NCBI GenBank assembly: GCA_038065495.1
Contig: JBBTQW010000001.1
Coordinates: forward strand, 44,137 to 108,136
Source of the DNA: Patescibacteria group bacterium
Lineage (GTDB): Bacteria > Patescibacteriota > Minisyncoccia > Phycocordibacterales > JACOZG01
Reading direction: 5' to 3'
Length of the DNA stretch: 64,000 nucleotides
How positions within the stretch are numbered: position 1 is the first letter of the stretch; every line of letters starts with the position of its first letter. The position numbers were made by a program, and so were the translations under genes. The notes under the pieces were generated by a model, which did not search any database, had not been told where the DNA came from, and worked only from the letters and a program-made list of their open reading frames with translations. Shown one piece after another: positions 2,487 through 63,881 of this stretch.

Positions 2487-2514
2487 ATGGCTAGATTATA
2501 GCAAATCTGCTAGA

Positions 2515-2976: not shown

Positions 2977-3031
2977 TTTAAAATAAAAAAAAGAAACCCG
3001 CTCGCGATGCATGACACATCGGGAACGGGTT
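2972..3031 (-). terminator. Rho-independent terminator (nested hairpin AACCCG...CGGGTT plus T-run on minus strand)
   Basis: aagaaacccgctcgcgatgcatgacacatcgggaacgggtt is preceded on the plus strand by an A-run, which is a T-run on the minus strand. It sits directly after the stop of the 3034..3738 gene. Confidence 0.6.
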
Positions 3032-3033
3032 CT

Positions 3034-3738: not shown

Positions 3739-3788
3739 AAGTCACCTCCTTTCGGGAGAGTAAAAGACCAGTCCAATTCCAGCCTACT

Positions 3789-4613
3789 CTACTCTATCTC
3801 GTAACGCAAGGTCACAGACACACGCACTTCTTGCGAACCGGGCTGGATGCTTGGCGCTGGAGCGGCCGCCATACCAAGATCGCGACTCGCCTCCATGCTA
3901 TAAATTTTGGTCATTGGATAATCCATACCACCTTCGTCGATACCCAATAATTCTCCAAGCGAGAAACCGGCCGCTTTGGCAATTGACTTAGCCTTAACCT
4001 TGGCCTCCGCAATGGCTTGAGCGCGAGCTTCGTTCTCGGCTGTCACTGGATCATCAATCGTAAAGTCGAGTTGCGAGACCGAGTTAGCGCCTTGTTTGAT
4101 TACACCCGAGAGCGCCTCGCCGATTTTACTAAAATTATCTTGGCGCACTTTCACCGAAACTGTCTGACTAATGGAGTAGCCAACGATCTCTGGCGGCGGA
4201 CAAGTCTGATTGAAACCGTCTGGACGAAAACCGCAATTGGCCGTCTCATAGCGCGGTGAGAGATTGTAACTCTCGGTCTTAATATCTTTCTCATCTAGCC
4301 CCTGATCTTTTAAGAATTTGATGGCTTTATTAACTTTCTCAGTATTGCTTGTCTGCAGTTTGCTAATATCGGTATCGCCCTCGGTGATTACGCTAAACGT
4401 GAACTTAGCGACGTCTGGCACCACCACCACCTTGCCCTCACCACTAGCCGAGAAGCTGCGGAAAGAGGCTGGCTGGATGGAACGCGCATAAGCGCTCACA
4501 TAACGCCAAGCGGAAAAAGCCACTAATAAAATGCTAATAATCAAAACCCAGCCCAAATAATTCTTTAATTTTTCAGTCATGTTCCACATTATAGCTTTTT
4601 TACTTCTAAACAC
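3789..4613 (-). CDS. SIMPL/DUF541-family periplasmic protein (YggE-like), N-terminal TM anchor
   Basis: 274-aa ORF. An N-terminal hydrophobic segment is followed by a SIMPL-like region (...SISQTVSVKVRQ...IAEAKVKAKSIAKAAGFSLGELLGIDEGG...). The start is ambiguous between 4613, 4589 and 4580. Confidence 0.75.
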   Translation of the reverse strand: MFRSKKAIMWNMTEKLKNYLGWVLIISILLVAFSAWRYVSAYARSIQPASFRSFSASGEGKVVVVPDVAKFTFSVITEGDTDISKLQTSNTEKVNKAIKFLKDQGLDEKDIKTESYNLSPRYETANCGFRPDGFNQTCPPPEIVGYSISQTVSVKVRQDNFSKIGEALSGVIKQGANSVSQLDFTIDDPVTAENEARAQAIAEAKVKAKSIAKAAGFSLGELLGIDEGGMDYPMTKIYSMEASRDLGMAAAPAPSIQPGSQEVRVSVTLRYEIE

Positions 4614-6458: not shown

Positions 6459-6486
6459 ATTATAGCAAATGGGTAGAAATTGTCAA
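6459..6486 (-). promoter_or_regulatory. sigma70 consensus promoter module P1 (TTGACA-16-TATAAT, then GGAGGTTGG)
   Basis: Reverse complement reads ttgacaatttctacccatttgcTATAATggaggttgg. It drives the 6089..6385 gene. Confidence 0.6.
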
Positions 6487-7288: not shown

Positions 7289-8416
7289 CTATTCGTACGG
7301 GACATATTTACCATCACGAGCAACTTTTACGCTAGTTTGATCGTTAATGTCGCCGTTGTTGTCAAAATTGATCTGATACGATAAGCCGGGAAAATCAGAC
7401 AGGTCGTCTAATTGCTTCTTAATACATTCTCCAGAATAAGCGCTGTTCTGACAAGCTTCGCCAACAAACGAGAGAATCTTGATCGCATCGTAGTGACGCA
7501 AAGTGAGATAACTAAGAAAATCCTGACCGTAACTCTTCTGATATTCTTCGGCAAATTTAGCTGAGGTTTTATTAGTAGGAGCAGTCACTAGCAAGCCCTC
7601 GGCGGCAGATCCAGCTGTCGAAAATAACTCCGGAACATCACAGGGTTGCCCGCACATCATTGGCACTTTAATCCCCAACTCTTTGGCTTGTTTTAGGATC
7701 GTGCCAGCCTCACGATAGAGAGTAGCCAAGAAAATGCCATCCGGATTAGCCGCCTTGACCTTGGCCAGTTGCGCCCGATAATCCGACTGACCAGGAGCGG
7801 AACTTTCTTCCGCGACAATAGTGGCTCTATTGGCCGCATACTTCTTGAACGCGGCTAGAGCGCCAGTGCCATAGTCACTATTGAGATAAAGCACTGCGAT
7901 TTTCTTCTTACCAAGCTTATCGATAAGCACATCTGCCGTGAGTTCAGCCTCTTTATCCGCCGTACCCACAATGCGAAAAGCGTAATCATCCGGGGTCGAA
8001 TAAGCTGGAGCAGCTGTCAACGCGAGCATTGGAACTTGGTCTTGGTTAACGATCGGGATCAGAGGCATCGCGGCTGGACTGCCAAACACCACAACCACAT
8101 CCACCTTGTTTAACGTCCGCAGTTTATTGTAAGCACTTAGAGCCACTTTTGAATCATAAGCATTGTCCTCAAAAATCACTTCGACCTTCTTCCCTTCAGC
8201 TAGTAAATCTTTCACCGCCAATTCCACGCCCTGCTTGGCAAATTCCCCAGCACTAGCAATCGGTCCAGTCAGCGGCAAAATCGCGCCAATTTTAATTACC
8301 TTTTCAGTGGTAGGAGTGACTGGTGTTACTGAATCTTTCTTCACCAAACAAGAAATCCCCCAGATCACCAGAGCAATCACAACTATCCAGAGCACGATTT
8401 TTGTGGTTTTGTTCAT
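7289..8416 (-). CDS. ABC transporter substrate-binding protein, LivK/Peripla_BP_6 family, N-terminal TM anchor (paralog 1)
   Basis: 375 aa. A TM helix is followed by IKIGAILPLTGPIASAGEFAKQGVELAVKDL..., the Leu/Ile/Val-binding protein family signature. Confidence 0.85.
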   Translation of the reverse strand: MNKTTKIVLWIVVIALVIWGISCLVKKDSVTPVTPTTEKVIKIGAILPLTGPIASAGEFAKQGVELAVKDLLAEGKKVEVIFEDNAYDSKVALSAYNKLRTLNKVDVVVVFGSPAAMPLIPIVNQDQVPMLALTAAPAYSTPDDYAFRIVGTADKEAELTADVLIDKLGKKKIAVLYLNSDYGTGALAAFKKYAANRATIVAEESSAPGQSDYRAQLAKVKAANPDGIFLATLYREAGTILKQAKELGIKVPMMCGQPCDVPELFSTAGSAAEGLLVTAPTNKTSAKFAEEYQKSYGQDFLSYLTLRHYDAIKILSFVGEACQNSAYSGECIKKQLDDLSDFPGLSYQINFDNNGDINDQTSVKVARDGKYVPYE

Positions 8417-8505
8417 GAGTTTAAATTTGGCTTAAATTTTTAACAGCCAAATTCTAGCAAACTAGCGCCTATTAGCCAAGAGTCGAAGCAGAGTCTCGGT
8501 GGGCA

Positions 8506-9675
8506 TTAGTTATTCATCGGCAGAAATGTCTCCTTTCCGTCTATGACCTGCGTCAAAGCTAGAGCATATGTGGGTTTGTGATCTGAACCAAAAATGATTC
8601 GTCCAGCAACACCATCCCAAGTGGTTGCCCGCTTGAAATAATCTCGTAGACATTCAACCTCTTGATTGCCACAAGATTCGATAGCCGCCTTCAGACGGAA
8701 CGGCATATCGTAAACCAGTGCAATCAAATGGTTGTTAAATGCAATAGGACGACCATATTTCGCTTCGTAATTAGCCAGAAAATTTATTGCTACGGATTTT
8801 TCTCGGTCAAAGAGCCCGCCAAAAGCAAAGTGCTTTGGCGGCAAATAACCACCAGTAACTTCCATGATCTTCTTAGCACTAAAGGCGGCGTTAAAGGCTG
8901 TGGGCCTCTCCACACCCAACTCTTTAAGTTGCTTCACAATAAGGCCCATTGTTTCTGGTCCTTGAGTGCCGATCAAGATTCCATCAAAAGTATGTGTTTT
9001 TAACTTTTGAACGATTGTGCGGAAATCATTTACCCCCGGAGAAAAACTCTCATCAAAAACTACTACTCCCCCAGCAGCCTGAAAAGCGGTCTTAAAATTC
9101 TCAGAGAAATCTACCGCGAATTCTTTCTTCTCGGTGATAACAGCGATACTTTTGATATCTTGACCAAAAACATATTTAGCACCCTCTTGGGCATAATAGC
9201 TACTGGGCACAGAGTTACGAAAAACCCATTCCCCTTCATTGGGAATGTTCGATACTGACGTAAGATTGGCAAGGACCAAAACTTTGTCTACAGATGATTG
9301 TGGAGCGATTGTCATCGTCTCGGTCGAGCAATGACCACCCAAAATAACACTGACCTTATCGCTGTTAACCAGTTTTTGCCAGGCATTAATAGCCGACTTA
9401 CCGTCACATTTCCCATCTTCGACAATCATCTCAAATGACCGGCCCAGTACTCCACCACTGCTGTTAATTTCCTCGACCGCCAGAAGAATTGCATTCCTAG
9501 CATCCTCACCATAAATTGCCGCCGTCCCCGATAGTGGCGCAATCACCCCAATCTTAATCGGCTCGGCAGAAATAGCCGGAGCTGGGGCTGGCTCTGTTTT
9601 GCCGCTTTTGCTAACCCAAACCCCCAAGCCAATAACTACTAAAATAACCACAATCCAGCCGATGATTTTGTTCAT
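8506..9675 (-). CDS. ABC transporter substrate-binding protein, LivK/Peripla_BP_6 family (paralog 2)
   Basis: 389 aa with IKIGVIAPLSGTAAIYGEDARNAILLAVEEINSSGGVLGR. Confidence 0.85.
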   Translation of the reverse strand: MNKIIGWIVVILVVIGLGVWVSKSGKTEPAPAPAISAEPIKIGVIAPLSGTAAIYGEDARNAILLAVEEINSSGGVLGRSFEMIVEDGKCDGKSAINAWQKLVNSDKVSVILGGHCSTETMTIAPQSSVDKVLVLANLTSVSNIPNEGEWVFRNSVPSSYYAQEGAKYVFGQDIKSIAVITEKKEFAVDFSENFKTAFQAAGGVVVFDESFSPGVNDFRTIVQKLKTHTFDGILIGTQGPETMGLIVKQLKELGVERPTAFNAAFSAKKIMEVTGGYLPPKHFAFGGLFDREKSVAINFLANYEAKYGRPIAFNNHLIALVYDMPFRLKAAIESCGNQEVECLRDYFKRATTWDGVAGRIIFGSDHKPTYALALTQVIDGKETFLPMNN

Positions 9676-9722
9676 ATTTTATTTGTTAATTTCTAATTTA
9701 TCAAAATCCTAGCACAAGCTGA

Positions 9723-10472
9723 TTATTCTCCCAAATACGCCTCCACTACCTCTCGCTGCGCCAGCACCGCACTTGGCTCGCCCTCGGCGAGCAACTGACC
9801 GGAATCCAGCACAATCACGCGATCCGAAAGTTGCCGAATCAGCTCCATATTATGCTCGATCAAGATCACGACTTTATTTTGCTGTTTTAAATCTTGCAAC
9901 ACATTCGTCACAATTTTGATCATCTCGGGGAAAAGTCCGGCAAATGGTTCGTCGAAAAGAAAGATTTGAATCGGGAAAGTCTGCGCCATCGCGAGCACGC
10001 GCGCGATTTCCAACAATTTTCTCTGTCCGTACGAGAGATTAATCGCCAGTTCGCCATGTTTGCTCCACAAATTTACTTTTTCTAAAACCTCGCGCGCTCG
10101 AGCTAAGTGCAGATTGTTATGCTTTTCAAATAGTGCGCTAAAAACTGGTCTGTCTGTTAGGACTACCAAAATATTATCCAGCACACTCATTTGTTCAAAA
10201 AGTCGCACATCCTGAAAAGTCCGGGTAATCCCGTAACTCGGCACTTGCGCTATCTCTACTTTCTTTAACTTCGTCCGTTCCAGAACTACAATTTCCCCAC
10301 CATCTAGCGGCAAAACGCCGGTAAGCAAATTCACCAGCGTACTCTTGCCCGAGCCGTTGGGTCCAATGATGCTGGTAATCTGCCCGGCGGCAAACTGGAG
10401 CGACAAGTGATCCACCGCGTGCACGGCATCAAACTTCTTTACTAGATTGTGAGTGGAGAGGATGGGAGGCAT
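9723..10472 (-). CDS. livG: branched-chain amino acid ABC transporter ATP-binding protein (LivG-type)
   Basis: 249 aa with GPNGSGKST, LSYGQRKLLEIAR and FLFDEP. It shares a start/stop junction with the upstream SBP gene. Confidence 0.9.
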   Translation of the reverse strand: MPPILSTHNLVKKFDAVHAVDHLSLQFAAGQITSIIGPNGSGKSTLVNLLTGVLPLDGGEIVVLERTKLKKVEIAQVPSYGITRTFQDVRLFEQMSVLDNILVVLTDRPVFSALFEKHNNLHLARAREVLEKVNLWSKHGELAINLSYGQRKLLEIARVLAMAQTFPIQIFLFDEPFAGLFPEMIKIVTNVLQDLKQQNKVVILIEHNMELIRQLSDRVIVLDSGQLLAEGEPSAVLAQREVVEAYLGE

Positions 10473-11599
10473 TATGGTTGGGTATAAAGAACCGCTTTCC
10501 CATTAACGATTTGCTTGACGGTTGGCAGAAGACCAATTGCGTCGCCATTTTCATCGAAACCATAAGTCCCCATTACCCCTTTAAAATCCTTGAGGCTGTG
10601 CAAATAGTCTTTTAGTTTCGAGTTATCCAAACCAACATTATCAATAGCCTGCTTTATCATATAAACAGAATCGTATGTAACAGCGTCAGCAAACTTGATT
10701 GTTGGTGCACGACCATAAAGCGACTCAAATTTATGGAAAAGTTCACTTTTTATTTGATTGTTACCAACATTAGGATCAGCAAAGAAAATCATTCCTTCTG
10801 CTTCGGATATTTCAATGACTTCTTCTAATTCACCAAAATAATTACCGTAAATTGGACCTTTATATCCCAATTGCCGCAATTGTCTTAACGCAGAGATTCC
10901 CCCAAGTGGTGCATTTGGATTCATAACCACTGTTTCTGGTTTTTTGGAAATTACATCAAGGACATAACCCCTAAAATCGGTAGTACCTGGAGGGTAATTT
11001 TCTTCAATGACTTCTCCTTGAAAATATTTTTTAAATGCCTTAAGTAAACCGACTGTAAAATCACTCGTTTCTGTTATGACTGCTACTTTCCCATACTTTT
11101 TATTAATCGTCTCCGCCATAACTCTACCAGTATCATCATCAGAGTAAGAATTACGGAAAATAAATTCTCCAGCACCAGTTAAATCAGGATGCGTAGCCCA
11201 CATCGACATCATCAAAACTTGATTCCTCTCGGCCACCGGTGCTACCGCCAAGGCTTCTTGACCACAAATCACCAACAGAATCTTCACCTTGTTTACCGTA
11301 ATCAATTTTTGCGCCGCAGAGAGTGCATCCTTGGGACCACATTTACCATCCTCGTAAATGATTTCTAAAGCCTGACCATTAACACCTCCGGAAGTGTTTA
11401 TTTCCTCGCGAGCGATTTCCACAACATCCCTCATTTCTTCCCCCCAAGCTGCAGCAAAACCAGACAACGGGCCGATAAAACCAATCTTCACAGTCTCACC
11501 ATTTTTTTCTCCAGAATTCTCACTTTTGCTCGCATAAACAGCGATAAAAATTAGCGCGAGAAGTACGAATAACCAGATTATTTTGTTTTGGGCTTGCAT
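10472..11599 (-). CDS. ABC transporter substrate-binding protein, LivK/Peripla_BP_6 family (paralog 3)
   Basis: 375 aa with VKIGFIGPLSGFAAAWGEEMRDVVEIAREEINTSGGVNGQ. Confidence 0.85.
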   Translation of the reverse strand: MQAQNKIIWLFVLLALIFIAVYASKSENSGEKNGETVKIGFIGPLSGFAAAWGEEMRDVVEIAREEINTSGGVNGQALEIIYEDGKCGPKDALSAAQKLITVNKVKILLVICGQEALAVAPVAERNQVLMMSMWATHPDLTGAGEFIFRNSYSDDDTGRVMAETINKKYGKVAVITETSDFTVGLLKAFKKYFQGEVIEENYPPGTTDFRGYVLDVISKKPETVVMNPNAPLGGISALRQLRQLGYKGPIYGNYFGELEEVIEISEAEGMIFFADPNVGNNQIKSELFHKFESLYGRAPTIKFADAVTYDSVYMIKQAIDNVGLDNSKLKDYLHSLKDFKGVMGTYGFDENGDAIGLLPTVKQIVNGKAVLYTQP

Positions 11600-11611
11600 G
11601 ATTTTATTTTT

Positions 11612-12478
11612 TTATAATTTATATTCCCCTACCAAGCCTTGCGGGCGGTAAAGCATTAGTATAACTAAAATCAGACCATAGACCACCTGCCGCATCTGCG
11701 CCGCGATGTCGCTGGGGAAGCCCACAAAGCGCAATAATTCTGGCAAGAGAATGAGAAACAAAGCGCCGAGTAGCGAGCCACGGAGATTGGCTAAGCCGCC
11801 CAGAATGATAATAGCGAGAATAAAGATAGATTCAAATAGAACGAAACTAGACGGATCAACGAAGGTGATGTAAGAGGCAAAGAGCGAACCAGCCACGGCA
11901 GCCAGCGCGGCTGATAAAACAAAGATTATGAGTTTGTAAAAAGTGGTACGATAGCCAAAAACTTGGAGCGCTTGTTCGTCCTCGCGAATAGCGCGGAGGG
12001 CGCGGCCGAAAGAAGAATTGACGATAAAGCGGCATAAGAAATAAACTAATAACAAAATCGCTAGCACTAATAGCAAAAAGTGAAAGTTGTCAGTCAAGTT
12101 GAGGCCAAAAATCTCCGGACGTCTAATACCGGGGATGCCGAGCGGACCTCTGGTTAGGCTTTGCCAGTTGAGGAAAACCGAATAGATAATAATGTTAAAG
12201 CCAAAAGAGCCGAGCGCGTAATAATCGCCGTGGAAGCGGGACAAAACTAAACCAATTAACAAAGCCAAGACAGAAGTGATGAGCACGCCGAGTAGCAAAG
12301 CCACGAAAAAGTTGAGCCCGGTGCTGGTGAGCAAGATCGCCGTGGCATAGGCGCCCAGACCATAGAACGCCGCATGCGTCACACTTAGCAAGCCGGTGTA
12401 GCCCACCACCAAGTTTAAGCTCAAGCCGAGGATGCCGTAGATGCCAACAAGGATTGCTAAGTGAATTAAGTAAGGCAT
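11612..12478 (-). CDS. livM: branched-chain amino acid ABC transporter permease (LivM-type)
   Basis: 288 aa, polytopic, with the LivM-like GYTGLLSVTHAAFYGLGAY motif. Confidence 0.85.
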   Translation of the reverse strand: MPYLIHLAILVGIYGILGLSLNLVVGYTGLLSVTHAAFYGLGAYATAILLTSTGLNFFVALLLGVLITSVLALLIGLVLSRFHGDYYALGSFGFNIIIYSVFLNWQSLTRGPLGIPGIRRPEIFGLNLTDNFHFLLLVLAILLLVYFLCRFIVNSSFGRALRAIREDEQALQVFGYRTTFYKLIIFVLSAALAAVAGSLFASYITFVDPSSFVLFESIFILAIIILGGLANLRGSLLGALFLILLPELLRFVGFPSDIAAQMRQVVYGLILVILMLYRPQGLVGEYKL

Positions 12479-12490
12479 GATTTTTTACTT

Positions 12491-13351
12491 CTATCTTTTG
12501 AACAAGCCCTGCGGGCGGAAAATTAAGAACACAATTAGTAAAGCAAAAGCGATCGCGTCCTTCCACTCGCCCGAGATCTGCCAAATGCCAAAGTTCTCCA
12601 CCGTGCCAAGCAAGAAGGCGCCCAGCACGCCGCCATAGATATTGCCGATGCCGCCCACAATCGCCGCGATCACGCCCTTGAGCAGCAAGTTGAGCCCCAT
12701 CGTCGGCTCAATGCCAGTGTCGAAGCCCACCAAGACGCCCGCCAAGCCACCAATGGCCGCGGAGAGGAAGAAGACAAAGCTGATGATTTTATCAGTATTA
12801 ATCCCCACCACCCGCGCCACCTCTTCATCATCGCCCACCGCTTTAATTGCCCGGCCAAATCTAGTCCGATTGAGGAAGAACGCTAGCGCGAGCATAATCA
12901 GCAAGCCGCTGGCAAGAATCACCAACTGCACGCCGGTAATCGCGCCGCCAATCACTTCATAAATTTTCCCTTCGCCAGCCGAGAGAGTTTGAAACTGACT
13001 GGAAAACAGGATCGCAATCACGGCTTGGAGAGCTGTGAAAATCCCGAGCGAGGCCACTAGCAAGACCATTGTCGAGGCTTTGCGGCGGCGCAATGGTCGG
13101 TAAACGAAGTAATCTGCTAAGTAACCAACCAAACCGGCAAGTAAAATTGCCAAGACCACGCTCAAGCCCAAGTTCAGACCGATTATTTTATACAACCAAT
13201 ACACGCCATAACCACCGATCGCCATCATCACGCCGTAACTAAGGTCAAAAAACTTGACCGTGCTGTAGATGAGATTAAAGCCAAGCGCGATCATCGTGTA
13301 GATCGCGCCGGCGATAATGCTATTGAGAATGAGTTGCGGCAGGATGCCCAT
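12491..13351 (-). CDS. livH: branched-chain amino acid ABC transporter permease (LivH-type)
   Basis: 286 aa, polytopic BPD_transp_2-like. Confidence 0.85.
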   Translation of the reverse strand: MGILPQLILNSIIAGAIYTMIALGFNLIYSTVKFFDLSYGVMMAIGGYGVYWLYKIIGLNLGLSVVLAILLAGLVGYLADYFVYRPLRRRKASTMVLLVASLGIFTALQAVIAILFSSQFQTLSAGEGKIYEVIGGAITGVQLVILASGLLIMLALAFFLNRTRFGRAIKAVGDDEEVARVVGINTDKIISFVFFLSAAIGGLAGVLVGFDTGIEPTMGLNLLLKGVIAAIVGGIGNIYGGVLGAFLLGTVENFGIWQISGEWKDAIAFALLIVFLIFRPQGLFKR

Positions 13352-13371
13352 TGGGCGAGATTTTTACTTTT

Positions 13372-14544
13372 TTAGCTAGCCAGTTCGGCCTTGCCGTTCT
13401 TGATGACTTTCAACACGTGGCCGCCCACACGATCACCGTCCGCGCCGATCGTTACCAAACCAGAAGCTCCCGGCCAATCTTTGACTGTTCTTACCCAAGT
13501 GGCAATCTTTCCCGCATCAGTCCCGTTTTTGTTAATTCCTTCTGCCAGAATATAGACTAAGTCGTATTGTGCTTGAGCATAGTTACGATAAATCATTTCT
13601 TTGCCGTATTTTTTGAGATAGTCCGCGTCGAGTTTTTGCGATTTCGGCAAGCTCGCTGTCCCTTGTTCGGCAACCAATGCGCCCTCAAGTCTCGTTTTGT
13701 GATTAGTAATCAAGTCAGCATTGCCAGAGACAATGTCGTTTGCCAAGAGTGGCACCGACCACTTGAGATCAGCTAGCTGTTTGAGAATCCGTTCGGCCGT
13801 GCCAGGAGATTGAGGATCGATGAACAAAGCATCAGCATTCGCTGCCCGCAATTTCGTGAGAGTAGAACGAAAGTCAGTGGTAGTGCCTGGATACTCTTCT
13901 TTCGTGATTGTCCCCGCCGTTGCTGGGTAATTAGCTTCGAAAGCACGATAAATACCAAGAGCATAATCCGAGGATTCCTGCAGAACGGCTACCTTTTTCC
14001 AACCATGAGCAATCGCGGCCTCGGCTAGCACCCGACCCTGGCCATTGTCGCTAGCCACAGTCCGGGCGAAAAACAGACTTTTGTTTGTCAAATCAGGACT
14101 AGTGGCTGTGCCAGAAAACACAAAGACTTTCGCTTGCTCGGCAATTGGCAAACCGGCCAGAACGGCGCCAGAACAATCCGAGGCGATCACAATCTTGACG
14201 CCGTCAGCGTTGACTAACTTCTGCATTGCATTAGCACCGCCAGTGCCATTGCATTTCCCGTCTTCGTAAACTAGTTCAAATGTTCGGCCATTAATCACAT
14301 TATTTGTGTTGACTTCTTCCACCGCTAGATCAGTCACATTTTTCACAAACTCTCCCAAAGCTGCGGCGTCGCCAGTTAGTGGCGTAATCACACCAACCTT
14401 AATCGGCCCAGTTTCCACCACCGGAGTGGGAGTTTCTGTAGTAGTGGGTGCGCTAGATTGACTCGCTTTGCCGAGATAGGCCAGACCGATAACCAACAGA
14501 ACCAAGATAATCAAACCAACTATCGCTTTGCCAGTATTGCTCAT
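13372..14544 (-). CDS. ABC transporter substrate-binding protein, LivK/Peripla_BP_6 family (paralog 4), first gene of operon
   Basis: 390 aa with IKVGVITPLTGDAAALGEFVKNVTDLAVEEVNTNNVINGR. Confidence 0.85.
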   Translation of the reverse strand: MSNTGKAIVGLIILVLLVIGLAYLGKASQSSAPTTTETPTPVVETGPIKVGVITPLTGDAAALGEFVKNVTDLAVEEVNTNNVINGRTFELVYEDGKCNGTGGANAMQKLVNADGVKIVIASDCSGAVLAGLPIAEQAKVFVFSGTATSPDLTNKSLFFARTVASDNGQGRVLAEAAIAHGWKKVAVLQESSDYALGIYRAFEANYPATAGTITKEEYPGTTTDFRSTLTKLRAANADALFIDPQSPGTAERILKQLADLKWSVPLLANDIVSGNADLITNHKTRLEGALVAEQGTASLPKSQKLDADYLKKYGKEMIYRNYAQAQYDLVYILAEGINKNGTDAGKIATWVRTVKDWPGASGLVTIGADGDRVGGHVLKVIKNGKAELAS

Positions 14545-19990: not shown

Positions 19991-20089
19991 TTGAGGCTCC
20001 TTTGGTCCAAAACGTGGACCGGTAGAAAGAACTTGTCCCCTGTGACTGCGTGTGTCTCTCAAGACAACTCCTCCAATCACTCTACCCCC

Positions 20090-20117
20090 AGTATAGCAAG
20101 CCCACAGGATTTGTCAA
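20090..20117 (-). promoter_or_regulatory. sigma70 consensus promoter module P2 (TTGACA-16-TATACT, then GGGGGTAGAGTG)
   Basis: Reverse complement reads ttgacaaatcctgtgggcttgcTATACTgggggtagagtg, nearly identical to P6. Confidence 0.65.
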
Positions 20118-26143: not shown

Positions 26144-26221
26144 GTTAAATAAAATTATAACAAAAAAACGCCTCATCTCACAATCAAGTGGGACAAGGCG
26201 TGGCGGACGACAAAACAGAAC

Positions 26222-27838: not shown

Positions 27839-27917
27839 GGATTTTCTCCTTCCGGCCTTTTGGGGCCAAAAATAAGGTTATTTCTTGTCAAAGTGCTACG
27901 ATAGCACCTCAACCCCC

Positions 27918-27946
27918 AGTATAGCAAATTGCGGTTTATTTGTCAA
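27918..27946 (-). promoter_or_regulatory. sigma70 consensus promoter module P3 (TTGACA-17-TATACT, then GGGGGTTGAGG)
   Basis: Reverse complement reads ttgacaaataaaccgcaatttgcTATACTgggggttgagg. Confidence 0.65.
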
Positions 27947-42493: not shown

Positions 42494-42522
42494 ACTCTCA
42501 CTATAGCAAATACTGGAGACTT
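42494..42522 (-). promoter_or_regulatory. sigma70 consensus promoter module P4 (TTGACA-17-TATAGT, then GAGAGTTGAGC)
   Basis: Reverse complement reads ttgacaagtctccagtatttgcTATAGTgagagttgagc. Confidence 0.6.
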
Positions 42523-50017: not shown

Positions 50018-50045
50018 TTGACAAATCCTATGTACTTGCTATAAT
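50018..50045 (+). promoter_or_regulatory. sigma70 consensus promoter module P6 (TTGACA-16-TATAAT, then GGGGGTAGTGG)
   Basis: ttgacaaatcctatgtacttgcTATAATgggggtagtgg is near-identical to P2 over about 40 nt. Confidence 0.65.
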
Positions 50046-50108
50046 GGGGGTAGTGGTGCTGTATTGCGGCACTTTGACAACAAAATAACCAGAAAACAGG
50101 AGAATAAA

Positions 50109-52180: not shown

Positions 52181-52516
52181 TTATTTCAAGCTATTAATCG
52201 TCTGGCCGATGGCAGAAGAAATGATGTACGCACCCAATATAATCGCCGCGCCAATGACCACGCCCAGCAGAGCACGTTTCGCGTCACTCAACTTATCCGG
52301 TGCGCCACGAGCTTGGACGAAGAGGAAACCCACATACACTATCGCCACCACCAGCACCGGCAGGCCCACCTGCACTACAATCTCGAGCAATTTATTTACA
52401 AAATCTTGAATGCTACAAATATTGATCGGATTGCTGATTGGCCCGGAACCGCCGCAGTTGCCTGAGCTTGGACGCGGGATTACATCAGCCGCGTAAACGA
52501 TAAATTGATCTAACAT
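52181..52516 (-). CDS. VirB2/TrbC-like (T4SS-pilin-like) small protein, paralog 4 (Cys pair N-terminal to TM1)
   Basis: 111 aa with NCGGSGPISNPINICSIQDFVNKLLEIVV, TM1, loop (QARGAPDKLSDAKRA) and TM2. Confidence 0.55.
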   Translation of the reverse strand: MLDQFIVYAADVIPRPSSGNCGGSGPISNPINICSIQDFVNKLLEIVVQVGLPVLVVAIVYVGFLFVQARGAPDKLSDAKRALLGVVIGAAIILGAYIISSAIGQTINSLK

Positions 52517-52546
52517 GACGAGTTCATTCTAGCACTTTATTGCTCA

Positions 52547-53011
52547 CTACTGGGGCAAGAAGCTGTGGACAGAGCTCTTGAGCGTATCTTTGGCGAGATA
52601 ATTAAAGATCGTATTGACGATTAGCCACGCGGCCAGCACCAGCGCCAGGCCAATGATCGCCGCCTGCAGGATCTCAATTGCTTGCTTGCGCTTCTCCGGT
52701 TTGGCTGGCTGGCTGGCCATGCCAATGCCGGCATAAGCAATCGCCACGGTGGCCACCGGCACAGCGAGGACAAAAGTAAAATAGTTCACAATATTCTGCA
52801 CAAGCTTAAAGAAGTCATTGGTCTGGCACTCGGCCTGGCCGGGATTGCCGCAAGGCACAATATTACTAGCCACTTGCGCGTGAGTCACCGAAGCCGAAAA
52901 AATTAGCGTGAGGCTAAAAAGTAAAACTAAAGCGAGAACAATAATTCTGCTAAATAAATTATTCATTATTATTTGCCGGCAAGAGATCTTGTAATTGCGC
53001 GCTGGCATCAC
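52547..53011 (-). CDS. VirB2/TrbC-like (T4SS-pilin-like) small protein, paralog 5 (Cys pair; start possibly internal at 52966)
   Basis: 154-aa ORF. A signal/TM is followed by PCGNPGQAECQTNDFFKLVQNIVNYF, TM1, loop (ASQPAKPEKRKQA) and TM2. The upstream 45 nt overlap the SBP-like gene, so the start may be MNNLFSR. Confidence 0.55.
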   Translation of the reverse strand: MMPARNYKISCRQIIMNNLFSRIIVLALVLLFSLTLIFSASVTHAQVASNIVPCGNPGQAECQTNDFFKLVQNIVNYFTFVLAVPVATVAIAYAGIGMASQPAKPEKRKQAIEILQAAIIGLALVLAAWLIVNTIFNYLAKDTLKSSVHSFLPQ

Positions 53012-54875: not shown

Positions 54876-55072
54876 CTGTGATAGAATAATTTTCGACAAC
54901 TTAATAGTAAAAGTAGCCTAAACCAGTGAGTAATCACTGGCATGGCGAAAGTCAGTCACGTAATGCACAGAAAACCCATCATGGGGTCGCATTACGTGCC
55001 GTATCGGGAAACCGATACGAGTGGCGCAAGCCACTACCTGTGGTGGGCTTTCTGTTCCTCGCTACAGGTAAT
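54876..55072 (+). ncRNA. candidate structured non-coding RNA or cis-regulatory leader, unknown class
   Basis: Three plus-strand GNRA-capped hairpins: CCAGTGA-GTAA-TCACTGG, CGTATCGG-GAAA-CCGATACG and GTGGC-GCAA-GCCAC. A 10-bp stem CACGTAATGC...GCATTACGTG encloses ACAGAAAACCCATCATGGGGTC. A long-range 8-bp helix pairs TTACCTGT (54877-84) with ACAGGTAA (55065-72). The GCCAC strand can alternatively pair downstream (CCAC-TACCTGT-GGTGG), giving mutually exclusive hairpins. On the minus strand the loops are non-GNRA, so plus orientation is inferred. No ORF with an RBS is present. Confidence 0.4.
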
Positions 55073-58539: not shown

Positions 58540-59160
58540 TTAGAACGACTTGATGACCACCACATCGCCAGCTTTCTCGCTTAATTCTTTCTTCTTCACT
58601 GTCCAGCTTTCCACTGCTTCCAGTTTTTCCTCACCCATTTCTTTCAAGAACAGCGCCAAGCTAGAACTAGAAAAATTAACTGGCACAATGACTCTTGGCT
58701 CTAGTTTAGTCGCCAATTTCGCCGCTCCTTTCGGCCCCAAGCCACCCTCGGCCGGCTCAGCGAGTGGCGCAAAGAGAATGTCGATTGTCCCCAAGGCTTC
58801 CACTGTTTCGTTACTCAATTCTGCCTCGGCTAGCGCGCCCAAGTGCACCAGCCGTGCGCCCTCCAGCTGGAGCAAATAAACGGTATTAATTTTCTGCCCC
58901 GGACCAATAGTCGCAAAACCGCGAATCAAATTGCCTTCCACCTCATATTCGCCCGGGCCGTCGATCACAAACGGCACGCGATCGGCGCGCGAGACTTGCT
59001 CCACGCCGGCATAGCCAGCGTCAGAGAGCGAGACCAGCGCCAAGTCGGCGCCAAACTTGACCACTTCCTGATCAGCGCCTTTCCCAATCGGATTAAAAGC
59101 GACGACCCAGTCGCCTTGCTGGATCTTGACCATGCCTAAGCCGTAATGACTGATTATCAT
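58540..59160 (-). CDS. MBL-fold metallo-hydrolase-like protein, tentative
   Basis: 206 aa. The beta-lactamase-like fold is inferred from the patterns (...DLALVSLSD...VHLGAL...DILFAPL...) but no canonical HxHxDH motif was found. Family call is tentative. Confidence 0.55.
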   Translation of the reverse strand: MIISHYGLGMVKIQQGDWVVAFNPIGKGADQEVVKFGADLALVSLSDAGYAGVEQVSRADRVPFVIDGPGEYEVEGNLIRGFATIGPGQKINTVYLLQLEGARLVHLGALAEAELSNETVEALGTIDILFAPLAEPAEGGLGPKGAAKLATKLEPRVIVPVNFSSSSLALFLKEMGEEKLEAVESWTVKKKELSEKAGDVVVIKSF

Positions 59161-59186
59161 GATTTAATTTAGTGGCTTAATTATAG

Positions 59187-59220
59187 CAAAAATCTCGCTA
59201 AGAGTGAAGCGAGATTTTTA
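59187..59220 (-). repeat. repeated hairpin element copy 1 (tagcaaaaaTCTCGCTAAGAGTGAAGCGAGattttt)
   Basis: The 20-mer CTCGCTAAGAGTGAAGCGAG is identical to the one at 63001-63020. It is flanked by A-run and T-run, acts as a bidirectional terminator-like hairpin, and overlaps a TTGCTATAAT -10-like element for the MBL gene. Confidence 0.6.
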
Positions 59221-59284
59221 AGAAAATAAAAAACGGCGCACGTGGTTCTTTGGGAACCAAATGCACCGTTTAAGGACGAACATG

Positions 59285-59614
59285 CTAGGGCTTGCAAAGT
59301 AGGCCATTAAAGACTTCGTCTTCAATGTAACCGACAACCTCTGCATCATCTGTCATTGCCTTGAGAACGTCGTCCAGACGCTCGGATAAGAGCTCGCCGG
59401 CACTCGCACCGTGTTTTGACAAAAAGTGCGTGAAGCCAAAACCGATCAGCACACCGAGCGCATGTGCGCTTTTAACCGTGTCCACCCTATCGAGAATGTG
59501 TGAGAAAAAATCATCCACCACACACCTCGCTCGACTGATTTTTGTCAAACGCGTCCTTAATGCCTCTTTCTCAGGCAAACTAACTTCTCTCAGCGCAATA
59601 GAAACTTCAGCCAT
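59285..59614 (-). CDS. hypothetical protein (109 aa)
   Basis: ORF followed by repeat hairpin copy 1 as terminator. No recognisable domain. Confidence 0.45.
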   Translation of the reverse strand: MAEVSIALREVSLPEKEALRTRLTKISRARCVVDDFFSHILDRVDTVKSAHALGVLIGFGFTHFLSKHGASAGELLSERLDDVLKAMTDDAEVVGYIEDEVFNGLLCKP

Positions 59615-59761
59615 AATAAACTCTCCTGCTTGCTGACACTATTTAACTTTCAAGGTCCGGTGGACAACACGTCCACCATCCAACATTGAGTATAGCATAA
59701 TAACCCCACGACCGTCAAGTGGCAAGACGCGATATAAAATAAGCCTAAAATAAGGCGATTT

Positions 59762-60820
59762 TTAGAAGCTCAGAACCTTGAGATACTGGCTGGAATTTAC
59801 CTCACCCGCAGAGTCGAATTGATAAGACGAAACCTGTCCGGTAATACCAGCTAAGATTTTGGCTTTTAGTTGTTCAATCGATAAGTCTTGAGCGTAGAAA
59901 GTATCGAGAATTCCAAACAAATCAAAAGTAATCGAATCATAGAACGGATATTGCGAGTCTTTGCCATATTTTGCTTTGTAGTCACTCACATATTTCTCGT
60001 AACCGGCTGTATCCAGAGACGCCTTCCAACACACGCCATGCAAACCGTAATCAGCTGGCTTGAAGGGGTAATCGCAAGTGTTCACTTCGCTAATAATTTC
60101 TGGCTTAAAGCTCTGAACTTGCATTTCCTTCAGCACCAGTTGCGCCGCTTTATCACTCGTAGGCACAAAGAGTAATGTATCAATGCCGGAGAATTTTAGT
60201 TTAGTAACTTGCGTGCGATAAGTGTTGTCATTGGCATTATATTTTTCTGTCGTCAAGATTTTGCTACCAAGATTTTCTTGCAAAAGATTGGCCAGCGACT
60301 GGGCATAATCTTGTTCTTCGTGCAAGAGACCGATCTTTTTGTTTTCTGGGATAGTCTTGATATGCTCCACCATTGCCTCGCCCACCGAGAGCGCGTCGGG
60401 AATAAATCTGATCACTTCTGTGCCAGTTTTTCTAATTTCGGCCGAGCCAGCGTAAGCGGTTAGGATTAGATCGCCATTTTGTTGAGCGAGCGGTGCGAGG
60501 GCCATCACACTGCCGCTACATGCAACGTAGAAAATCCTGACGTTTTCTAATTTTAATTTCTGGTAAGCTGAGATCGCTTTTTTAGCATCACATGGATCGT
60601 CTTCAAACATTGGGAGAATATTCTGATAAGTTTGGAGATTAATTGCATTCTTAATCGGCTCACCCATCGAGGCCACTGCTCCGCTCAGCGGGATAATCAC
60701 ACCAATCTTCACCGGTCGTTCTAGTTTTACGGCATTATCTGCCTCTGGATTTTTAGAAGCCAAAACAGCAATACCAATAACAACCACAATAACCACCAAC
60801 CAAATTATTACTTTTTTCAT
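59762..60820 (-). CDS. ABC transporter substrate-binding protein, LivK/Peripla_BP_6 family (paralog 5)
   Basis: 352 aa. A TM anchor is followed by VKIGVIIPLSGAVASMGEPIKNAINL. Confidence 0.8.
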   Translation of the reverse strand: MKKVIIWLVVIVVVIGIAVLASKNPEADNAVKLERPVKIGVIIPLSGAVASMGEPIKNAINLQTYQNILPMFEDDPCDAKKAISAYQKLKLENVRIFYVACSGSVMALAPLAQQNGDLILTAYAGSAEIRKTGTEVIRFIPDALSVGEAMVEHIKTIPENKKIGLLHEEQDYAQSLANLLQENLGSKILTTEKYNANDNTYRTQVTKLKFSGIDTLLFVPTSDKAAQLVLKEMQVQSFKPEIISEVNTCDYPFKPADYGLHGVCWKASLDTAGYEKYVSDYKAKYGKDSQYPFYDSITFDLFGILDTFYAQDLSIEQLKAKILAGITGQVSSYQFDSAGEVNSSQYLKVLSF

Positions 60821-60826
60821 GTTTAA

Positions 60827-61951
60827 TTAATTTTCTAGTTTCACAAATTGACCGTCCTTAACAATCTTGAACAAAGTTGGCTTAGAAGCAACGCCATTTT
60901 CGTCAATACTAATGTTGCCACTCACGCCGTGATAATATTTGATCTTGTGCAATTCTGTTTTGATACACTCAACGTCTTCGCCACATACTAGATAAGCCGC
61001 AACTTCCAGATGTAGAGCGTCATAAGCATTGGAAGCAAAGACATCAGGAAAAACTCCGTATAGCTGCTTAAAGTGATCACGGAAGCCGTTGCTGTCGTCG
61101 CCCAAGATAGCTGGGTCAGCAGATGAGATAATAAAACCTTCAGCAGTTTTGCCAGCCACACTAAGAACAACCGGATCCTCGTTCTGATAATTACCAACCA
61201 GTGGTGTTTGAATGTCTAATTCTTTGGTTTGCTTGATGATCGTTCCTAATGCGCCAGTTAGTTGGGTCACAAAAATCACATCCGGTTTTGCCGCTTTAAT
61301 TTTTGTCAGATTGGTTCTGAAGTCGTTAGTGTCGAGAGAAGTCATCTCGTCAGCCACCACTTGACCACCGAGTTCCGTAAATCTAGCCCCAATATATTTC
61401 CGGTAATCTTTGCCAAACTGCGTATTGTAATAAATAAAAGCCGCTTTTTTGGCTTTCAAATTATTAACCGTAAAATCAGCAATCGTTTTAGCATTATCTC
61501 TGACTAAGAAATTAGTGGAGAAGTAATAATTTTTCCCTAACAAATCATCAACGTTCGCCGCAACACCCATGCTGATAATTTTGTTTGGCTCGGTAATTGC
61601 AATAGACGGAACCAAACCAATCGCGCAAAATTGATTAATAGTTTTTACTTTATCAATATTAATCAGTTTCTGGACCGCCGAAGTAATATCTTTTGGTAGG
61701 CAAGCATCTTCGTAAACAAGATTTATCGCTAAATCTTTCTTTCCACTCTCGAGATCTTTTTTAGCGAGATCAAAACCACGTTTGATATTCTCACCAATTG
61801 AGGCGTAGTTGCCTGTCAGTGGAATAGCAATGCCAATCTTGATCACCTCACCACTTTTCACATCACTATTTTCTGTTTTATTTTTACTCGCAAAAACGAC
61901 GATGAAAATTATTGCGAGAATTATTACTAGCCAAATTATTACTTTTTTCAT
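60827..61951 (-). CDS. ABC transporter substrate-binding protein, LivK/Peripla_BP_6 family (paralog 6)
   Basis: 374 aa. A TM anchor is followed by IKIGIAIPLTGNYASIGENIKRGFDLAKKDL. Confidence 0.8.
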   Translation of the reverse strand: MKKVIIWLVIILAIIFIVVFASKNKTENSDVKSGEVIKIGIAIPLTGNYASIGENIKRGFDLAKKDLESGKKDLAINLVYEDACLPKDITSAVQKLINIDKVKTINQFCAIGLVPSIAITEPNKIISMGVAANVDDLLGKNYYFSTNFLVRDNAKTIADFTVNNLKAKKAAFIYYNTQFGKDYRKYIGARFTELGGQVVADEMTSLDTNDFRTNLTKIKAAKPDVIFVTQLTGALGTIIKQTKELDIQTPLVGNYQNEDPVVLSVAGKTAEGFIISSADPAILGDDSNGFRDHFKQLYGVFPDVFASNAYDALHLEVAAYLVCGEDVECIKTELHKIKYYHGVSGNISIDENGVASKPTLFKIVKDGQFVKLEN

Positions 61952-61975
61952 GATTAATTAATTTAGAATAACTTA

Positions 61976-62977
61976 TTACAATTTAACCGGCACACCATCT
62001 TTAATTTGCTTCAAGATCAGATCGCGCTGGTACACGCCACTGTCATTAAATTTACTGGACGAAATTAATTTATCTTTCACACACTCATAATCACCAGCGC
62101 AGGCAACCACGTTATCTGTTAGCAAAGCCGTGGCTTCTCGGGTTAAGCCAAAAACGGCGGCTTCAGCGTCAGCCATGCCGGCTGGGTAAGAATAGAAAAC
62201 GTCAGAGACGAGCGCGCGCACGGCTGGCAGTTCCACCACATAAGTAGAGAAAACGGGAACAGCCACTTTCTGCTGGCGCAATTTACTGAGACCACTGGCA
62301 AAGAAGAAGGAGATATCTGGCGAATAAATTGCATCCACTTTGGCGAGATTAATCTTGGCTATTTCGGTCGAGACATCGCTGGAATCGTCCAGCAATTTGC
62401 TCTCAATCACGATTTTGCCTTTGAAGGCCGCGCGGAAAGCATCCGCATGCGCTTGAGAAAAGGCGTTGCCGTAACTAATTAACGCCACATTCTTGTAACC
62501 CAATTCATACATTTTGTTGGCAATAAACGTTGATTCATCTTGAAGCGAATACTGGATGTTGAAGAAATTGTTACCACTTTTCTGATACAAATCAGCCGAA
62601 GCGGCAGCCGGCACCAGAGCCAAGATTTTCTGATTATTAAGCAATGGCACGATCGCCTCTTGTGGCGAGCCACAAGCCGGGCCAATCAAAAAAGAGATTT
62701 TCTGAAAGCCGGTTAACTTCTGGAAAGCCGAAACCGCTTCCTTGGGATCACATTTGTCGTCTTCGTAAACTAACTCAACATTTTTCCCAGCCGCTCCGGC
62801 CATCGCGCCTTTCCTAATTTCTTCACCGTAATCGGCCACCACTCCAGTCAGTGGTGCAATTACGCCGATCTTGATTGGCTCACTGGCCACTGGCGCAACT
62901 GGCTTCTTGCTCATCCACACCCCGCCGATTATCAAAACTAAGATAATTATTATTGCCCAAATTGTTGATTTATTCAT
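61976..62977 (-). CDS. ABC transporter substrate-binding protein, LivK/Peripla_BP_6 family (paralog 7)
   Basis: 333 aa. A TM anchor is followed by IKIGVIAPLTGVVADYGEEIRKGAMAG. Confidence 0.8.
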   Translation of the reverse strand: MNKSTIWAIIIILVLIIGGVWMSKKPVAPVASEPIKIGVIAPLTGVVADYGEEIRKGAMAGAAGKNVELVYEDDKCDPKEAVSAFQKLTGFQKISFLIGPACGSPQEAIVPLLNNQKILALVPAAASADLYQKSGNNFFNIQYSLQDESTFIANKMYELGYKNVALISYGNAFSQAHADAFRAAFKGKIVIESKLLDDSSDVSTEIAKINLAKVDAIYSPDISFFFASGLSKLRQQKVAVPVFSTYVVELPAVRALVSDVFYSYPAGMADAEAAVFGLTREATALLTDNVVACAGDYECVKDKLISSSKFNDSGVYQRDLILKQIKDGVPVKL

Positions 62978-62993
62978 GATTTACCCACAGTAG

Positions 62994-63027
62994 CAAAAAA
63001 CTCGCTAAGAGTGAAGCGAGTTTTTTG
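62994..63027 (-). repeat. repeated hairpin element copy 2 (tagcaaaaaaCTCGCTAAGAGTGAAGCGAGtttttt)
   Basis: Identical 20-mer to copy 1 with the same flanks. It acts as terminator for 63054..63881 and sits upstream of the SBP paralog 7 start. Confidence 0.6.
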
Positions 63028-63053
63028 TGAGAAACAGAATCAGTTAGCCAGAT

Positions 63054-63881
63054 CTACGGATAACCAGTACCCGTCTTCATACAAGTGTAAGTGTCTGGAA
63101 TATTGTAAGCGTTGGTGCCCACCACAGTGTAAGCATAACCGGTTGGGCAACCTGGGAATGGCACACCCTTACAAGGGAAGCTATTGAGCGTAATAAACCC
63201 AGCGGTGTGCTGGATTCCACACCAGGCACCAGACTGATTACCGTCATTGGTGCAACGGAACTCGTCTGTGCCGCCGCCCACACAGAGACCCTTGCTCGCC
63301 ACGATTGTGTCGTCAGCCCGGATATTACCGGCCACGTGTAGCTTGTCTTGGCTGTATGGACTCTCGATGCCAATACCCACATTGCCGTTCATAATCGTCA
63401 CCGGACCATCGGCATAGATCGCGCGGTTGGCACTGCCCGCACCGCCGCCGCTCTTAACCCACAGCGCGCTCCAGAAGCCGTTCCAGTTCTTGATACCCGA
63501 GAGCTCGGTACCGGTGAGTGTGCCGCCACCCGGATACCAGACGCGGAAGTTGTAGTCATTCGCGCCGCCGTGATTGCCATTGATAATCGCGCCTGTGAGA
63601 GTGGTAAAGTCGCCGGCATTGCCACTGACAGCATTATAGCCAGCCGGTAACTGACTCGCCGGTGTGGCCGGTGGCGGTGTGTAGCCGCCGGTACTACCAG
63701 ACGTATTGCCACCATATTGCGCCGCTAAGCCAAGCAACCAAGCATTAATCCCATCAATTGTGGACTGGCTGGCGCCAGAAACGCTGGACGGATAAGTTTG
63801 CGCTTGCGCTAACTGTGTAGCCAGCACCGCGCCAGAGACCACAAATAACAAAACAAAAAGACTAATAACTAATTTTTTCAT
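63054..63881 (-). CDS. secreted Gly/Thr/Asn-rich, Cys-containing hypothetical protein (possible adhesin or surface protein)
   Basis: 275 aa with a signal peptide (LFVLLFVVSGAVLATQLAQAQT), Gly-rich low complexity and a Cys-rich C-terminal domain (CVGGGTDEFRCTNDGNQSGAWCG...CKGVPFPGCPTGYAY...YTC). Confidence 0.6.
   Translation of the reverse strand: MKKLVISLFVLLFVVSGAVLATQLAQAQTYPSSVSGASQSTIDGINAWLLGLAAQYGGNTSGSTGGYTPPPATPASQLPAGYNAVSGNAGDFTTLTGAIINGNHGGANDYNFRVWYPGGGTLTGTELSGIKNWNGFWSALWVKSGGGAGSANRAIYADGPVTIMNGNVGIGIESPYSQDKLHVAGNIRADDTIVASKGLCVGGGTDEFRCTNDGNQSGAWCGIQHTAGFITLNSFPCKGVPFPGCPTGYAYTVVGTNAYNIPDTYTCMKTGTGYP

Follow-up and report, generated by a model that had tools for sequence, protein, structure and literature searches.

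A hairpin repeated at two intergenic sites of a Patescibacteria genome is probably a terminator embedded in an extended -10 promoter

Does an intergenic hairpin that recurs letter for letter at two sites mark a sequence-specific or mobile element, or is it gene punctuation that has been copied locally? The question is raised by a 64-kb stretch of contig JBBTQW010000001.1, part of a Patescibacteria metagenome-assembled genome (MAG); the whole of this stretch is called the window here, and all positions follow its numbering. The 20-mer CTCGCTAAGAGTGAAGCGAG occurs in it as two exact copies, at 59194-59213 and 63001-63020. An earlier note on this DNA, made by eye and called the original prediction below, had described both copies as terminators overlapping promoters and had proposed that the identical loops point to a sequence-specific or miniature mobile element. 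The half concerning terminator and promoter was right, and the sequence-specific or mobile element is unsupported. In our view each copy is likely to be a Rho-independent terminator that forms part of an extended -10 promoter, the pair having arisen by local duplication on either side of a block of genes that varies. The pair is a further instance of two known kinds of signal, and the result is chiefly a negative one: a striking exact repeat proves to be ordinary gene punctuation, locally copied.

The genes around both copies all lie on the minus strand. Read in that direction, the order is a gene for a 275-aa protein, hairpin copy 2, three genes for solute-binding proteins (SBP1 to SBP3), a 109-aa open reading frame (ORF) with its terminator, hairpin copy 1, a gene for a metallo-beta-lactamase (MBL)-fold hydrolase, an 85-aa ORF and the GyrA gene. 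The two hairpins are as follows.

59188..59219, minus strand: hairpin copy 1, reading AAAAATCTCGCT-TCACTCTT-AGCGAGATTTTT on the gene strand, between the terminator of the 109-aa ORF and the promoter of the MBL gene

62995..63026, minus strand: hairpin copy 2, reading AAAAAACTCGCT-TCACTCTT-AGCGAGTTTTTT on the gene strand, beginning 27 nt past the stop codon of the 275-aa gene

On the gene strand, copy 1 stands in the context ...ttcttAAAAATCTCGCT TCACTCTT AGCGAGATTTTTGCTATAATtaagccactaaattaaatcATG and copy 2 in the context ...ctcacAAAAAACTCGCT TCACTCTT AGCGAGTTTTTTGCTACTGTgggtaaatcATG. The pair is real and non-random. Both copies of the exact 20/20 repeat were recovered, and a third site was absent from the window at up to 3 mismatches, where shuffled sequences lead one to expect 0.01 sites. 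A relaxed scan of the window, allowing at most 1 mismatch per stem arm with any loop of 3-13 nt, or at most 1 mismatch in the loop, returned only the same two copies. The repeat finder reported them as a 43-nt pair (family D7) with 88% identity, 59184-59226 and 62991-63033, lying 3807 bp apart. The original prediction had placed the start of the conserved segment (tagcaaaaa...) at 59187 and 62994; the repeat stands as described, and the true starts are 59184 and 62991.

The CTCGCT/AGCGAG core stem had likewise been recognized correctly, as had the A-run and T-run that flank the hairpin at both copies, and the loop, given as 9 nt, is 8 nt long (AAGAGTGA). The copies differ at one position in each flank (left t/a, right a/t), and the differing bases are partners, T-A at copy 1 and A-T at copy 2. 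These differences are compensatory, and the true stem is therefore longer than its core, 12-13 bp of the form AAAAA[T/A]CTCGCT / AGCGAG[A/T]TTTTT. Folding of the minus strand gave -16.1 kcal/mol (z = -5.8) for copy 1 and -17.7 kcal/mol (z = -6.1) for copy 2, and a run of five or six T residues follows directly 3' of each stem on that strand.

This is the anatomy of an intrinsic terminator, a stable stem-loop followed at once by a T-run, and it is found at both copies. The position fits as well, with a same-strand stop codon shortly upstream: besides the 27 nt that separate copy 2 from the 275-aa gene, copy 1 starts 65 nt past the 109-aa ORF. We therefore take the resemblance to an intrinsic terminator that had been noted earlier, a stem-loop with T5-6 just past a stop codon, to be well founded. 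Judged from its sequence, copy 2 is the predicted terminator of the 275-aa gene, whose transcript would end there. The likeness extends to the A-tract/U-tract type of intrinsic terminator, in which a stem-loop with G+C pairs precedes a U-tract and an upstream A-tract is complementary to it. The description of the element as bidirectional fares less well. Each copy has minus-strand genes on either side, so that bidirectionality has no role here; unlike terminators of the bidirectional type, neither copy separates convergent transcription units, and only one direction can matter. The G·U pairs found in relatives (see below) also form on the gene strand only.

The promoter half of the module begins where the T-tract ends. 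Its elements are listed here.

59180..59188, minus strand: extended -10 element of the MBL gene, TGCTATAAT, 19 nt before the ATG at 59160; one T is common to it and the hairpin T-tract, of which it is the last

62987..62995, minus strand: weak extended -10-like element of SBP1, TGCTACTGT, followed by GGG, 9 nt before the ATG at 62977

59203..59208 (copy 1) and 63010-63015 (copy 2), minus strand: the -35-like hexamer TTCACT, to which the stem contributes its last base and the loop the rest, 17 nt upstream of TATAAT at copy 1

Each copy thus has a TGn followed by a TATAAT-like hexamer near an ATG, perfect at copy 1 and weak at copy 2. At copy 1, TGCTATAAT is a perfect extended -10 entered straight from the hairpin T-tract, and the consensus promoter scan found TTCACT-17-TATAAT with 10/12 matches and the TG present. 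The motif TTGCTATANT occurs seven times in the window against 0.44 expected, and at five of the six other instances it has cTTGACAa 16-17 nt upstream and a G-rich discriminator. The enrichment and the pairing with TTGACA indicate that the genome uses a canonical sigma-70 consensus and that the motif at copy 1 is its -10. The overlap with the promoter of the next minus-strand gene, which the original prediction had claimed, is borne out, since TGCTATAAT is kept at the junction in the relatives L118, L119, L120 and L121 and enriched in the window. The element resembles known extended -10 sigma-70 promoters (TGnTATAAT) in this perfect match, in its short or absent leader and in its retention among relatives. 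It differs from them in that a terminator hairpin fills both the spacer and the -35 position. At copy 1 the hairpin loop (cTTCACTc) stands in the place that TTGACA takes in the other TTGCTATAAT promoters of the window, and it offers only the weak -35 TTCACT.

We considered whether the loop is kept as a conserved -35 and rejected this, since TTCACT is found also in the relative L121 and is missing from L118, L119, L120 and L122, so that its contribution can at most be lineage-specific. The loops of the window and L121 have TCACT in common, a partial conservation that may reflect weak use as a -35, not a general property.

Fusion of terminator and -10 is not confined to this pair. On the minus strand at about 26160-26210, an unrelated hairpin (GCCTTGTCCCAC...GAGATGAGGC, -19 kcal/mol) is followed by T7, then by GTTATAAT and, 10 nt on, by an ATG. 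Its layout is identical, which argues that the fused terminator/-10 is a habit of this compact genome. The ATG follows the -10 by just 6-9 nt at many of the sites compared, where a Shine-Dalgarno sequence is lacking; for the MBL gene the interval is 19 nt. The compared sites are 62977-62995 in the window, 8878-8898 in L118, 9984-10003 in L119, 2131-2148 in L120, 2787-2806 in L122 and 2975-2992 in L123. At the L118 ortholog of the SBP1 element, which reads TGTTATTCT-GGA, the distance to the ATG is likewise 9 nt. Such short spacing suggests that leaderless or near-leaderless mRNAs may be made in this Patescibacteria lineage.

The strong promoters of the window, cTTGACAa-16/17 nt-TGCTATA[A/C/G]T, lie at 50036-50045 (plus strand) and at 42500-42509, 27918-27927, 20090-20099 and 6459-6468 (minus strand), and the discriminators of all five are G-rich (GGGGGT, GGAGGT or GAGAGT). 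A seventh motif site, 2495-2504, lacks TTGACA; together with the site at 59180 and the five strong ones, it defines the promoter consensus. The transcripts predicted from 50046-50085 (plus strand) and 27878-27917 (minus strand) begin with a common leader, which is weaker at 20060-20089 (minus strand). It has the form gggggtWgWggtgct-loop-agcacTTTGACAa, a small hairpin, after which another TTGACA follows, and it could be a repeated leader or a tandem-promoter element.

Which part of the module has been kept in evolution was asked of syntenic loci, found through homologs of the MBL protein and designated L118 to L126. Protein identity to the MBL hydrolase of the window is 85% in L118, 69% in L125, 68% in L121, 67% in L120, 65% in L119, 64% in L122, 63% in L126 and 58% in L123 and L124. 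All loci except L125 have a hairpin of the same family 21-38 nt past the stop codon of the 275-aa ortholog (a distance from a stop codon that is again like that of intrinsic terminators; L126 begins inside the hairpin, where it is not measurable), and in all of them the hairpin directly adjoins G[C/T]TATAAT or a variant of this motif. The hairpin of L125 (CGCCCC...GGGGCG) is unrelated, and its TGGTATAAT comes about 20 nt later. The hairpins read as follows on the gene strand.

L118, before the MBL gene: AAAAAACTCGCT AGGAATAA AGCGAGTTTTTTGCTATAAT

L118, before the SBP gene: AAAAAACTCGCT TTATTCCC GGCGAGTTTTTTGTTATTCT

L121: AAAAATCTCGCT TCACTTGG AGCGAGATTTTTGCTATAAT

L119: AAAAAACTGGCT TTCA AGCCAGTTTTTTGCTATAAT

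L120: AAAAAACTGGC, a longer central segment, GCCAGTTTTTTGTTATAAT

L122, before the SBP gene: AAAAAACTGGCT TGGG AGCCAGTTTTTTGTTAGCAT

L123 and L126: AAAAAGCTGGC TCTAGA GCCAGCTTTTTG(T/C)TA...

We aligned 10 orthologous or paralogous hairpins over a 12-bp helix. Paired cells made up 99.2% of this alignment, against 43-61% in a control in which the 3' partner was slid by 1-3 columns. Two-sided changes occurred at 4 of the 12 pairs (C-G to G-C, A-U to U-A or G-C, and others) and reached the core, where CTCGCT/AGCGAG alternates with CTGGCT/AGCCAG. There were only two single-sided changes, both of them U·G and pairing on the gene strand alone. The T-tract was followed by G[C/T/G]TA in 10/10 sequences, with zero indels at the junction. 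In contrast, the loops vary in both sequence and length, from 4 to 17 nt: TCACTCTT, TCACTTGG, TTATTCCC, AGGAATAA, TTCA, TGGG, TCTAGA and a loop of 17 nt. Judged by these alignments, the conserved feature is an RNA-type helix with its promoter junction, not the loop. A helix kept by compensatory change around a free loop is the way in which intrinsic terminators evolve. The original prediction had asked whether the loop is conserved in orthologous intergenic regions, and in these sequences it is not.

Why, then, are the two loops of the window identical? The answer appears to lie in the block that they enclose, the features of which are listed here together with the flanking genes.

63054..63881, minus strand: gene for the 275-aa signal-peptide (secreted) protein, no Pfam match; stop codon at 63054-63056; orthologs lie 5' of the hairpin in all relatives

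59285..62977, minus strand: variable block between the copies, three SBP genes and the 109-aa ORF

61976-62977, minus strand: SBP1 (Peripla_BP_6), ATG at 62977

60827-61951, minus strand: SBP2 (Peripla_BP_6)

59762-60820, minus strand: SBP3 (Peripla_BP_6)

59285-59614, minus strand: the 109-aa ORF, within the block

59225..59271, minus strand: terminator hairpin of the 109-aa ORF, stronger than copy 1, an 11+6 bp stem followed by TTTTTT, directly upstream of copy 1 on the gene strand

58540..59160, minus strand: gene for the MBL-fold (Lactamase_B_3) hydrolase, downstream of copy 1, ATG at 59160

The content of the block differs between relatives. In the window it holds three SBP genes and the ORF; L118, L122, L123 and L126 each have one SBP gene there, and L119, L120 and L121 have none. 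The SBP of L118 is the ortholog of SBP1 (82.6% identical), and its gene is flanked by two hairpins; that of L122 is non-orthologous, with 25% identity to SBP1. L123 and L126 lack a second hairpin despite their SBP gene. L121 aligns to window positions 63418-62991 and then to 59229-55792, with a single hairpin common to both alignments, and this hairpin combines the 5' flank of copy 2 (tttctcac) with the T-A stem pair and the 3' flank of copy 1. The state of L121 is either one that precedes insertion of the block or one that results from deletion by recombination between the direct repeats.

The loops themselves suggest recent copying. The paralogous loops match at 8/8 positions in the window, and in L118 they match at 7/8 after one of them is flipped, compared with 4-5/8 between orthologs; by our own calculation, the chance of a match at 7/8 or more is about 4e-4. 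Over the whole hairpin, the L118 copies are 30/32 identical once one is reverse-complemented, and hence the loop has been flipped. Paralogs resemble each other more closely than orthologs do, yet the SBP1 arrangement is older than the split of the lineages, which indicates recent copying between the two sites. The route could have been gene conversion, template switching, or re-duplication in the lineage of the window as the block gained SBP2, SBP3 and the 109-aa ORF. Hairpin loops enclosed by perfect inverted repeats are known to invert by mutation in plastid spacers (PMC6824564), and the article attributes the description of such "flip-flop" inversions to Kelchner and Wendel (1996). The loops found here resemble those of plastids in that the loop occurs in both orientations within a perfect inverted repeat, with stem and folding energy unchanged. 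They differ in being two paralogs in one bacterial genome, not orthologs across plant species, so a mechanism like that of the plastid spacers is offered by analogy only.

A mosaic signal also falls at the hairpin. Upstream of it, over the last 363 nt of the 275-aa gene, L121 is closer to the window (88.2% nt and 95.8% aa identity) than L118 is (79.6% and 87.3%). Downstream, over the MBL gene, the order is reversed, with 78.4% nt and 87.4% aa for L118 and 70.3% and 69.0% for L121; the similarity of GyrA to that of the window is alike in both. The switch of nearest relative thus coincides with the hairpin, where the alignments of L121 positions 1-433 and 387-3807 join. L121 is a 6.2-kb metagenomic contig (ENA ERZ1292623, Hainich), and its mosaic is due either to recombination between lineages at the conserved hairpin or to a chimeric contig joined there.

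The SBP family is abundant in this region. At least seven Peripla_BP_6 paralogs with pairwise identities of only 25-33% are encoded in the 64 kb, four of them around a putative ATP-binding cassette (ABC) transporter gene cluster at 7289-14544 and three in the hairpin-flanked block at 59762-62977.

The module would work as follows, termination, initiation and copying each being predicted from the letters of the locus. In the RNA, the CUCGCU/AGCGAG core with its additional A/U pairs and the U5-6 that comes after them would end the upstream transcript. In the DNA, the T-tract would continue into the TGnTATAAT extended -10, with the loop sitting at the -35 position (TTCACT, 17-nt spacer) and the 3' arm and T-tract serving as spacer, and the new transcript would start a few bases further on, with a short leader or none. 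The module would have been copied or homogenized recently, either by duplication upon insertion or expansion of the block or through gene conversion or template switching from one palindrome to the other, and if the two direct repeats recombined, the block would be lost cleanly. The identical loops may reflect this recent copying, possibly reinforced by the -35 position that TTCACT occupies.

Several observations weigh against an interpretation as terminator and promoter. The GC core is short, 6 bp with four G-C pairs, modest for a terminator, and copy 1 lies directly behind another, stronger terminator, which makes it redundant as a terminator there. The consensus terminator scan listed neither copy, probably because maximal extension of the stem absorbs the T-run. 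The -10 of copy 2 is poor (TACTGT, 3/6 matches). Finally, that the loops are more alike within a genome than between orthologs requires either recent copying or selection on the loop.

A dispersed element, whether a repetitive extragenic palindrome (REP) or a miniature inverted-repeat transposable element (MITE) inserted in two intergenic regions, would account for a short palindromic repeat that is intergenic and has identical copies, and REPs, the bacterial interspersed mosaic elements (BIMEs) that they build and MITEs are indeed short imperfect palindromes repeated between genes. Many dispersed copies would then be expected, whereas there are two in 74 kb of the source contig (the window and the 10 kb beyond its end, L127), and a relaxed stem/loop search of those 10 kb gave no match. 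Across the lineage, about 145 kb in total, the pattern of the whole hairpin family occurs only at orthologous positions, whether in the window, in L127 or in the roughly 70 kb of relatives (L118-L124), which speaks against the mobile element of the original prediction. The hairpin stands at one syntenic position down to about 58% MBL protein identity, so it was inherited, not inserted, and neither a target-site duplication nor terminal-repeat anatomy nor a transposase accompanies it. In public collections, a search of GTDB species genomes with AAAWCTCGCT-N8-AGCGAGWTTT returned 114 matches in unrelated phyla, none of them from the source genome and all with other loops (this loop in 0/114). The stem alone is therefore a common terminator sequence. 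The exact 20-mer was absent from the viral contig collection and had one match among metagenome contigs, inside a biotin carboxylase coding sequence (NLAKSEAR), which is a chance match. No Rfam 15 family reached its gathering threshold at the hairpin, where two sub-threshold matches, no better than chance, scored 27.8 bits against 60 and 24.3 against 43. The original prediction had called for a genome-wide count; over 74 kb of the source contig, about 70 kb of relatives and the public collections, the count yielded only two intergenic copies with this loop. Their restriction to a recent segmental duplication, which it had named as the outcome that would speak against a special element, is essentially what we found, the copies being tied to a local segmental rearrangement. 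A REP-like or mobile element is already largely refuted, and we regard it as extremely improbable.

The palindrome, or its non-palindromic centre, might instead be an operator, bound by a sequence-specific regulator that controls the MBL and SBP genes together. This would explain why the centres of the two copies are identical within one genome and more alike than those of orthologs, as well as their overlap with the region from -35 to -10, and the flipped centre in L118 would be tolerable for a DNA-binding protein, if not for an RNA-binding one. However, the half-sites of orthologs stand anywhere from 4 to 17 nt apart, at odds with the fixed spacing of a dimeric regulator, and compensatory stem changes with G·U pairs on the gene strand only are the signature of an RNA helix. 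There are only two sites, and the Pfam lists hold no helix-turn-helix family within +/-10 kb. The differing loops of orthologs, and the 114 same-stem hairpins among which this loop is never found, also tell against reading loop identity as a sequence-specific binding site. An operator is in our view very unlikely. The hairpins could also be recombination substrates, attC-like or cruciform-mediated boundaries of cassettes by which SBP genes are gained, lost or exchanged. The block does vary among relatives (0, 1 or 3 SBPs and the ORF, with an SBP in L122 that is only 25% identical to SBP1), L121 has a clean junction with a switch of nearest relative exactly at the hairpin, and the loop is flipped between the L118 copies. 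Yet no integrase or site-specific recombinase is found within +/-10 kb, ordinary homologous recombination or replication slippage between direct repeats of 35-40 bp would suffice, L121 could be an assembly chimera with its joint at the conserved hairpin, and L123 and L126 have an SBP gene without a second hairpin. attC sites carry unpaired bases in their arms. The arms pair perfectly here, and with the integrase also missing, an integron attC-type site was rejected; dedicated recombination substrates of any kind are unlikely. Somewhat less so, though still doubtful, is a broader idea, that the pair forms a self-homogenizing palindromic module at a hotspot of SBP gain, loss or exchange between related Patescibacteria, or that the loop is kept because it is read by a lineage-specific factor or, at the -35 position, by sigma region 4. 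If the hotspot exists, folded palindromes would be a substrate for recombination or template switching, leading to concerted evolution, loop flipping and a mosaic breakpoint at the hairpin.

Taken as terminator and promoter, the pair illustrates how tightly a reduced Patescibacteria genome may be packed, with terminator, -35 position, spacer, extended -10 and a leaderless or near-leaderless start predicted within about 50-75 nt. It also helps to give a promoter consensus for the lineage, namely TTGACA, 16-17 nt including TG, TATAAT and then GGG. On a small scale, it appears to show two short palindromes evolving in concert, with a flip of the loop, on either side of a gene block that varies, and such repeats could mislead both motif hunters and assemblers.

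A comparable pair was seen in another small genome, the Candidatus Peribacteria MAG SRP093185_co1_26, where identical hairpins, AAAAAACTCGCT-TAAATTTA-AGCGAGTTTTTT, lie on two contigs (L017 624-651 and L024 3687-3714). Repeated identical terminator hairpins may be common in such genomes.

Two further features of the region were observed. Downstream of GyrA, the relatives have an SBP_bac_1 gene and then a conserved run of 4-5 small T4SS_pilin/TrbC-like genes (15735-17582 in L118 and 15157-16879 in L119); ORFs occupy the matching place in the window, 52181-53011 on the minus strand. A full-length LOOT RNA (Rfam RF03000) lies at 54915-55035 on the plus strand, with 89.3 bits against a gathering score of 46.4, in the gap that separates a methyltransferase gene from a 220-aa ORF.

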